A DNA stretch of 64,000 nucleotides, from NCBI GenBank assembly GCA_030059665.1, contig JANVYR010000001.1:704001-768000 (forward strand). Reading direction: 5' to 3'. Shown here piece by piece: positions 1 to 503 of the stretch. The notes under the pieces are model-generated. The model was not told the origin of the DNA, made no database searches, and saw only the letters and a program-made list of their open reading frames with translations. Origin of the DNA: Candidatus Calditenuis fumarioli. Lineage in GTDB: Archaea; Thermoproteota; Nitrososphaeria_A; Caldarchaeales; Calditenuaceae. The stretch's first letter is position 1; each line of letters starts with the position of its first letter. The position numbers and the translations under genes were made by a program.

Positions 1-503
1 CTCCCTCTCGAGGACCTCGAGCTCGTAGACCGTCCTGAGCCTGGGCCTCCTGGCGACCCTCGACCTGACGGGTGGGGTCTGGTAGATCTCGCCGACGAAC
101 TTGGTCAGCGCCTCCGCCAGCTCCCTGTCCGAGACGTCGCCGTGCAGCCGCATTACGCCCACGTACTCCTTGGGCAGGCCCGTCACCGCCTGCGTGAGCC
201 TCGTGGCCCTTCCCAGCAGCACCGGGAGGACGCCGGTTACAGCGGGATCTCCCCCGCCCCGAGGGCGCCAAGGGTCCCGCCGTGGCCGGCCTGCTCGACG
301 CCGAGTATCCGGCGGACGGATGCCACCACGTCCTGGCTCGTAGGCCCGGCGTGCTTGTCCGCGACGAGGTACCCGAACTCGAGCAGATCCCGCAGGGTCC
401 GGTCCTCGGGACGCTTGCCGTACCTCTCGTCGGTCGTCGCGTCCACCACCGTCACGATCTCCCTCTCACGCTCTCTGAAGGGGTCGGAGTAGACGAACCT
501 CAA
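1..503 (-). CDS. cbf5: Cbf5/TruB RNA-guided pseudouridine synthase, intron-split (exon 1 503..269, exon 2 248..<1; 3' end outside window)
   Basis: Exon 1 (probable TTG start at 503, overlapping the rpl14e stop) reads GYLVADKHAGPTSQDVV...AGHGGTL. After removing 249-268 it continues [17 protein letters not shown]...KEYVGVMRLHGDV...IYQTPPVRSRV, i.e. the complete TruB motif GHGGTLDP. Confidence 0.93.
249..268 (-). other. 20-nt bulge-helix-bulge (BHB) mRNA intron in cbf5
   Basis: Pre-mRNA CGGCGGGA-CCCU-UG^G-CGCCC-UCG-GGGCG-GGGG-AG^A-UCCCGCUG forms an 8-bp exon-exon stem, two 3-nt bulges and a 4-bp central helix. Excision restores the Asp codon G^AU; the unspliced frame stops at 239..237. Confidence 0.9.

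Follow-up and report, generated by a model that had tools for sequence, protein, structure and literature searches.

Organization of the cbf5 locus

The window, i.e., the whole stretch of 64,000 nucleotides of Candidatus Calditenuis fumarioli DNA that was analysed, opens on its minus strand with a cbf5 gene whose coding sequence is split in two. The host genome is a metagenome-type assembly of 1.57 Mb in 3 contigs (91% complete, 62% G+C), and the initial annotation, made from the letters alone, had already placed it among Caldarchaeales; this placement agrees with the nearest named records, which at 90-91% protein identity are Ca. Calditenuaceae archaeon JGI OTU-1 and Ca. Calditenuis sp. PSP.bin.8. 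The two exons match the Cbf5 model TIGR00425 in different reading frames, exon 1 at profile positions 8-75 and exon 2 at 67-322 (291.9 bits). The parts of the gene are:

269..503, minus strand: cbf5 exon 1, 78 codons and the first base (G) of the Asp codon, translation ending ...AGHGGTL
249..268, minus strand: predicted cbf5 intron of the bulge-helix-bulge type, 20 nt, sequence GCGCCCUCGGGGCGGGGGAG
1..248, minus strand, running past the window start to genome C1:703452: cbf5 exon 2, 265 codons in total

The 20-nt insert (268..249, minus strand) reads GCGCCCTCGGGGCGGGGGAG and interrupts the codon of the catalytic Asp between G and AT. The 3' end of exon 1 is ...GGC CAC GGC GGG ACC CTT G, encoding GHGGTL and the first base of the Asp codon, and exon 2 begins at A248 with AT CCC GCT GTA ACC GGC (D-PAVTG). 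If the insert is not removed, the exon 1 frame reads on through GALGAGEIPL and then meets the stop TAA at 239..237. The break of the TruB motif GHGGTL-DP by 20 nt (249-268) and the resulting frameshift are therefore present as first described, and so is the restoration of TLDP by cutting at the bulges: excision of the 20 nt in silico restores GAT and yields a single open frame of 343 codons, i.e., a 343-aa Cbf5. A profile search of the contigs with TIGR00425 found no second cbf5 in the 1.57-Mb genome, so that the intact copy elsewhere, to which the initial annotation had drawn attention as a possible objection, was not found. The sole other match in this search, a PUA-domain stretch on contig 2, is not a cbf5. 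The putative start of cbf5 is the TTG at 503-501, which shares bases with the TGA stop of an upstream L14e-like gene (TTGA, window 500-503, minus strand), and this overlap suggests translational coupling of the two genes.

A bulge-helix-bulge fold across the insert

The insert and its flanks fold into a motif of five elements, whose pairs were verified base by base:

239..283, minus strand: whole hBHBh' motif
283-275/239-247, minus strand: outer exon-exon helix, 9 bp
C274 C273 C272 U271 / G251-G254, minus strand: central helix CCCU/GGGG, 4/4 pairs, one of them U-G
U270 G269 ^ G268, minus strand: 5' bulge UG^G, predicted cut after G269
A250 G249 ^ A248, minus strand: 3' bulge AG^A, predicted cut after G249
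267-263/255-259, minus strand: intron hairpin, 5 bp, loop UCG

Two 3-nt bulges thus lie on opposite strands with a 4-bp helix between them, and the flanking helices (h = 9 bp, h' = 5 bp) exceed the at least 2 bp that the strict hBHBh' definition asks for. When the bulge rule is applied, with a cut after the second bulge base, the sites fall at CUU G|AU CCC, exactly at the codon junction. Both the base-by-base pairing and the fold at 75 °C confirm the bulges UG^G and AG^A, the CCCU/GGGG helix and the 5-bp hairpin that had been read by eye; the outer stem had been given as 8 bp and is in fact of 9 bp, the pair A283-U239 being added. At 75 °C, taken as nearer to hot-spring temperature than 37 °C, the minimum-energy fold is identical with the strict bulge-helix-bulge. 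The 61-nt stretch gives z = -3.0 against shuffles at 37 °C, a temperature at which its minimum-energy structure is off by one register. Motifs of this quality are rare in the genome: with thresholds of at least 9 bp for the outer helix, 4/4 pairs for the central helix, at least 5 bp for the inner helix and a length of at most 40, an equally good motif occurs at only 6 sites on both strands of the 1.57 Mb, cbf5 included, and each of the remaining ones sits within a long open frame running across it. On these grounds, and on the comparative evidence given below, the 20 nt are very probably an archaeal endonuclease-type (bulge-helix-bulge) intron of the cbf5 pre-mRNA.

The opposite view, that the 20 nt arose as an artefact of sequencing or assembly, has a negligible chance of being right. 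Apart from the fact that the host genome is a 3-contig assembly of metagenome type, nothing speaks in its favour, and the assembly error against which the initial annotation had cautioned did not materialize, since the same 20 nt stand in independent metagenome contigs. Contigs of two other studies (X11; X17 + X19), none of them marked as a potential source of the assembly, span the site with no gap or joint and show 0 differences within the 20 nt, against 2 to 20 elsewhere in the 1.8-kb stretch. The insert is moreover found at the same codon in seven genomes of the genus, where it is 20 or 22 nt long, and in dozens across the order.

Distribution among Caldarchaeales and other Thermoproteota

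The search took in every other genome of the order, 75 in all, the class being, in the taxonomy used, this order alone. The alignment of cbf5 from relatives that had been proposed as a check gave a clear answer, as the gene is split at the same point, at profile position ~70, in 45 of the 75: the window's own family shows it in all of its 18 genomes, a second family in all 4, a third in 16 out of 18, and a fourth in a single genus, of 7 genomes. One further genome carries an in-frame 21-nt insert with a TAG, and in another a contig end removes exon 1. The 27 genomes with an uninterrupted cbf5 fall in four genera of one family, and the 6 genes that were read are all truly intron-less. In a Cbf5 tree, which is a gene tree from a quick search, the genera without the intron group together as a single clade (support 99) that sits among the carriers of the order, so that a single loss is the simplest history; on the same grounds the intron would be ancestral to the sampled Caldarchaeales, one clade having lost it. 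This clade consists of genera g9, g13, g14 and g15 of family f3 (L004, L005, L006, L118-L120) and includes one 338-aa protein named Candidatus Wolfr...; its codons at the pairing sites are relaxed (GGA ACG CTC GAY CCA), as expected after intron loss.

The inserts read within the order measure 13, 14, 16, 17 and 19-23 nt. The size of the Calditenuis intron had been called near-minimal, a description that has to be dropped given published introns down to 16 nt, 13-14 nt in relatives of the order and 11 nt in another lineage of the phylum. Introns of 11 nt (L148, G079) and 13 nt (L153/G080, L008/G025, L011/G019, L017, L019, L125) stand at the same codon and are too short for an inner helix, so that their motif would be a bulge-helix-loop with a long exon-exon helix.

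Beyond the order, the cbf5 intron is also carried by named loci from two groups, Ca. Methanomethylicia, where it has 23 nt, and Ca. Nezhaarchaeales, where it has 19 nt. When 250 genomes from the phylum were sampled, many families turned up in which cbf5 is split, or over-long and stop-containing; when 20 such genes from 14 further families were read, all 20 had an insert at the same site, of 11-39 nt. Five large families of this 250-genome sample showed, at survey level, uninterrupted genes only.

Conservation of the structure and selection on the exons

Among 55 distinct intron-bearing sequences, the insert lies without exception between G and AY of the Asp codon, and cutting by the bulge rule hits the codon junction in 55/55. 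All four pairs of the central helix are formed in all but two of the extracted intron-bearing sequences. Within the genus, the intron hairpin has changed in sequence and stayed paired (CGCCC/GGGCG, CGCC/GGUG, CGCC/GGCG, GGCCCU/AGGGCC, GGCC/GGCC). The exon side of the structure is likewise constrained: at the pairing sites carriers use ACC for Thr in 50/55, CUA for Leu in 45/55, GGG for Gly in 48/55 and CCC for Pro in 39/55, and intron-less cbf5 genes use all synonymous codons at the same sites. Since the exon sequence GGNGGNACNCUN-GAYCCN is partly self-complementary through its codons, some pairing is to be expected without selection; intron-less genes show little of it, and the exon-exon helix has a mean of 7.5 contiguous pairs in Caldarchaeales carriers versus 0.5 in intron-less members of the order. 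Such comparisons between genes provide evidence for selection on the RNA structure around the cbf5 intron, acting at synonymous sites.

Could the insert simply be a frameshift lesion in a decaying or inactive cbf5, whose function was lost or assumed by other pseudouridine synthases? The unspliced frame does end 10 codons past the insert, and public gene callers report just a truncated CDS. We nevertheless regard decay as extremely unlikely. Within the genus, dN/dS is 0.12-0.35 for exon 1 and 0.11-0.30 for exon 2, values that indicate purifying selection on the two exons and speak against a dead gene. A lesion would also have to account for an insert site shared with 46 other genomes of the order and with 14 further families, for an exact splicing motif in the flanks with compensatory changes and constrained synonymous sites, and for all this in the genome's sole cbf5 copy.

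Another way to keep the gene alive would be to dispense with RNA splicing, either because the ribosome bypasses or frameshifts over the 20 nt or because the two halves are separate polypeptides that assemble. In favour of this, each half is an open frame, the intron of the window happens to end in G, hence a GAT-CCC in the frame of exon 2, and in the archaeon HR02, of the same family, a start codon lies within the insert and would give MGGGD.... What the relatives have conserved, though, is the bulge-helix-bulge geometry and not a slippery site or take-off and landing codons. The lengths of the inserts vary (11, 13, 14, 16-23 and up to 39 nt), those that are a multiple of three contain stop codons, and the exon 2 start codon is not conserved. 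The last intron base before the 3' cut is itself variable among carriers (G, A, C or U); with A, C or U at this place, as in most relatives, the frame of exon 2 lacks the Asp unless the RNA is spliced. Translation without splicing is thus very unlikely, and the cbf5 intron is almost certainly spliced in the host, as judged from DNA comparisons. The sequencing runs listed as containing the locus include none of RNA, and one RNA run from the study behind two of the DNA runs yielded no contig across it.

Splicing enzymes and a proposed pathway

Two genes of the genome encode a tRNA_int_endo domain (88.6 and 44.2 bits); the two EndA genes lie at C1:825436-826005 and C1:664042-664581. The first EndA, of 190 aa, matches the catalytic subunit of Aeropyrum pernix (3P1Z_B) with E = 5.7e-50, and the alignment is gapless across the "Crenarchaea-specific loop", with the equivalents of Lys44 (in the loop) and His133 kept; the wide substrate range of the A. 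pernix enzyme is due to this loop (PMC3241643). The second EndA is a divergent paralogue whose weaker matches include structural subunits. The presence of two paralogous genes makes an alpha2beta2 enzyme likely. RtcB is encoded as well (455 bits). The rtcB gene (C2:419269-422019, outside the window) is a single open frame of 974 aa with an in-frame insert of ~1.26 kb, intein-like in appearance, between profile positions ~83 and 46.

The same enzymes appear to have much other work to do. ARAGORN, run with introns allowed, called 24 of the 52 tRNAs intron-bearing, several introns being just 12-14 nt, which points to a heavily used splicing system. It is worth mentioning that 8 of the tRNA "introns" called are of 305-2097 nt (e.g., tRNA-Asn, tRNA-Lys, tRNA-Arg) and may be inserted elements and not introns, and that an odd tRNA with a 4-base anticodon was called at window 53916-54014 (plus strand).

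Taking these elements together, we propose the following pathway. Exon 1 (CGGCGGGA-CCCU) would pair with exon 2 (UCCCGCUG) and with the GGGG at the 3' side of the intron, and the resulting fold would display a 3-nt bulge on either strand, with 4 bp between the two. The EndA of crenarchaeal alpha/beta type, encoded elsewhere on the same contig, would then cut UG^G and AG^A after the second base, and RtcB would ligate ...CCCUUG to AUCCCG..., which would give GAU, the codon for the catalytic Asp, together with the 343-codon frame, with CCCTTGATCCCG as the predicted spliced junction. An unspliced transcript could give at most a 78-aa N-terminal piece followed by 10 junk residues, so that Cbf5 synthesis would depend on the tRNA-splicing enzymes. 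This dependence, already put forward in the initial annotation, gains support from the single cbf5 and from the EndA pair and RtcB encoded in the genome, the splicing step itself being predicted from these genes and from the fold.

Search for further split genes

The initial annotation had also called for a genome-wide scan for other frameshifts flanked by bulge-helix-bulge motifs. The strict-motif scan gave 152,053 raw matches, of which 19,271 join reading frames, open-frame filters being nearly useless at 62% G+C. A codon-usage filter left 591 matches and dropped cbf5 itself, which makes the motif scan an insensitive one. The five best short candidates proved by Pfam to be ordinary gene boundaries (MoaA|CBS, ABC_tran|CbiQ, SHMT|HAD, Roadblock|Roadblock, LivH|LivM-like). 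The scan could thus be carried out, and by this insensitive, motif-based route no second split protein gene was found in the genome, a result that does not imply absence.

Public annotation of intron-bearing cbf5 genes

The initial annotation had expected automated pipelines to call the gene a pseudogene. The public record took a different course: the calls are truncated CDS covering exon 2 only, with no pseudogene flag. For intron-bearing Caldarchaeales (P0001, P0002, P0004, P0005, P0036, P0041, P0051, P0108) they are 247-268 aa long and have no N-terminal domain, and several are named Cbf5; the intron-less relatives have public calls of 338 aa. The call for the window's sequence starts with VLLGRATRL and lacks the catalytic Asp, and that of HR02 begins within the intron. 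Three public calls were read, and all are without GHGGTL; the Asp is absent from P0001 and P0002 and kept in P0036. Truncated Cbf5 entries of this kind distort marker-gene alignments and the inference of function.

Origin and retention of the intron

The intron has been known for long from another part of the phylum. The first archaeal pre-mRNA intron to be described was that of cbf5, in Aeropyrum and Sulfolobus (Watanabe 2002). Yokobori 2009 reported that most Desulfurococcales and Sulfolobales carry it, with a size of 16-44 bp, saw none in Thermoproteales, Thaumarchaeota and Korarchaeum, and placed its origin in the common ancestor of Desulfurococcales and Sulfolobales (PMC2738675). A 2020 paper and a 2023 review still confine it to Crenarchaeota or to "a relatively small group", and in published work it is the sole coding-sequence intron of Archaea. 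We found no literature report of a cbf5 intron outside Crenarchaeota, Aigarchaeota/Caldarchaeales included, in a coverage that leaves out most subscription journals, so that absence is unproven. What is described here is a known kind of intron, with its known mechanism, extended to a lineage, Caldarchaeales, for which it is unpublished.

The same intron thus stands at the same codon in Caldarchaeales and, elsewhere in the phylum, in at least 14 more families, and the question arises as to when it was acquired. A single ancient cbf5 intron, predating the split of Caldarchaeales, Methanomethylicia/Nezhaarchaeales and Sulfolobales-Desulfurococcales, retained at one codon and repeatedly lost, is a scenario that we advance tentatively, the odds being somewhat against it; the alternative is repeated gain at a predisposed site. 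It would put the origin early in Thermoproteota and, with the same reserve, would ask for losses, e.g., in Nitrososphaerales, Thermoproteales and one clade of Caldarchaeales. If there was one ancient intron, the distribution moves its origin well before the 2009 node, and the intron would not be a novelty born in the ancestor of two crenarchaeal orders. The wider distribution also sharpens the question as to why one essential gene retains this intron. Retention over so long a time, if the intron is ancient, would imply a function, and it is tempting to speculate that through the intron the production of Cbf5 is linked to how active the tRNA-splicing enzymes are.

Comparison with known bulge-helix-bulge introns

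In kind and in position, the intron of the window is a homologue of the cbf5 intron published for Desulfurococcales and Sulfolobales (Watanabe et al. 2002; Yoshinari et al. 2006; Yokobori et al. 2009), as the reference to Aeropyrum and Sulfolobus in the initial annotation had implied. Published cbf5 introns disrupt the catalytic residue's codon (PMC2738675), and the gene and the disrupted codon are the same here. In named loci of Ignisphaera, Desulfurococcales and Sulfolobales, the phase, between G and AY, is also shared, together with a common central helix made of exon CCCU and intron GGGG (3' GGGG-N-N). With its 20 nt, the Calditenuis intron lies within the published range, being short and ORF-less, and its host probably has the same type of endonuclease as the published hosts, an alpha/beta enzyme with the crenarchaeal loop. 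Lineage-specific loss, known for the published intron, is likewise seen in Caldarchaeales. The Calditenuis host itself lies outside Desulfurococcales and Sulfolobales, a departure from the published distribution that reflects a sampling limit of the literature and not a defining property of the intron. Two further differences concern the structure and the kind of evidence. Most published cbf5 motifs are relaxed, whereas the one of the window is a strict hBHBh' whose exon-exon helix is long; named loci of Ignisphaera type, unlike the window, have next to no exon-exon helix in this register, together with a long intron hairpin. Splicing of the published cases was established by cDNA and by in vitro cleavage, whereas the Calditenuis case is known from DNA alone.

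The canonical bulge-helix-bulge introns of tRNA and rRNA (Marck and Grosjean 2003, as cited in PMC6379350) likewise have two 3-nt bulges separated by 4 bp and flanked by helices, and the same cut after the second bulge base, and EndA and RtcB are the enzymes to be expected in both cases. The cbf5 intron is also similar in size to the tRNA introns of its own host (12-51 nt by ARAGORN). It differs from the canonical introns in that it lies in protein-coding sequence, without a tRNA body; its helices are built from codons, so that the same bases are constrained by the protein sequence and by the RNA structure. A second comparison is offered by HVO_1309 of Haloferax volcanii, which has a bulge-helix-bulge intron in its 5' UTR (Schwarz et al. 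2020, PMC7714728). Both are mRNA substrates of the tRNA-splicing endonuclease, HVO_1309 by that report and cbf5 by the prediction made here; the HVO_1309 intron, however, lies in a 5' UTR and not in a codon, belongs to a euryarchaeon whose endonuclease is a homodimer and bears no relation, in sequence or position, to the intron of the Calditenuis cbf5.
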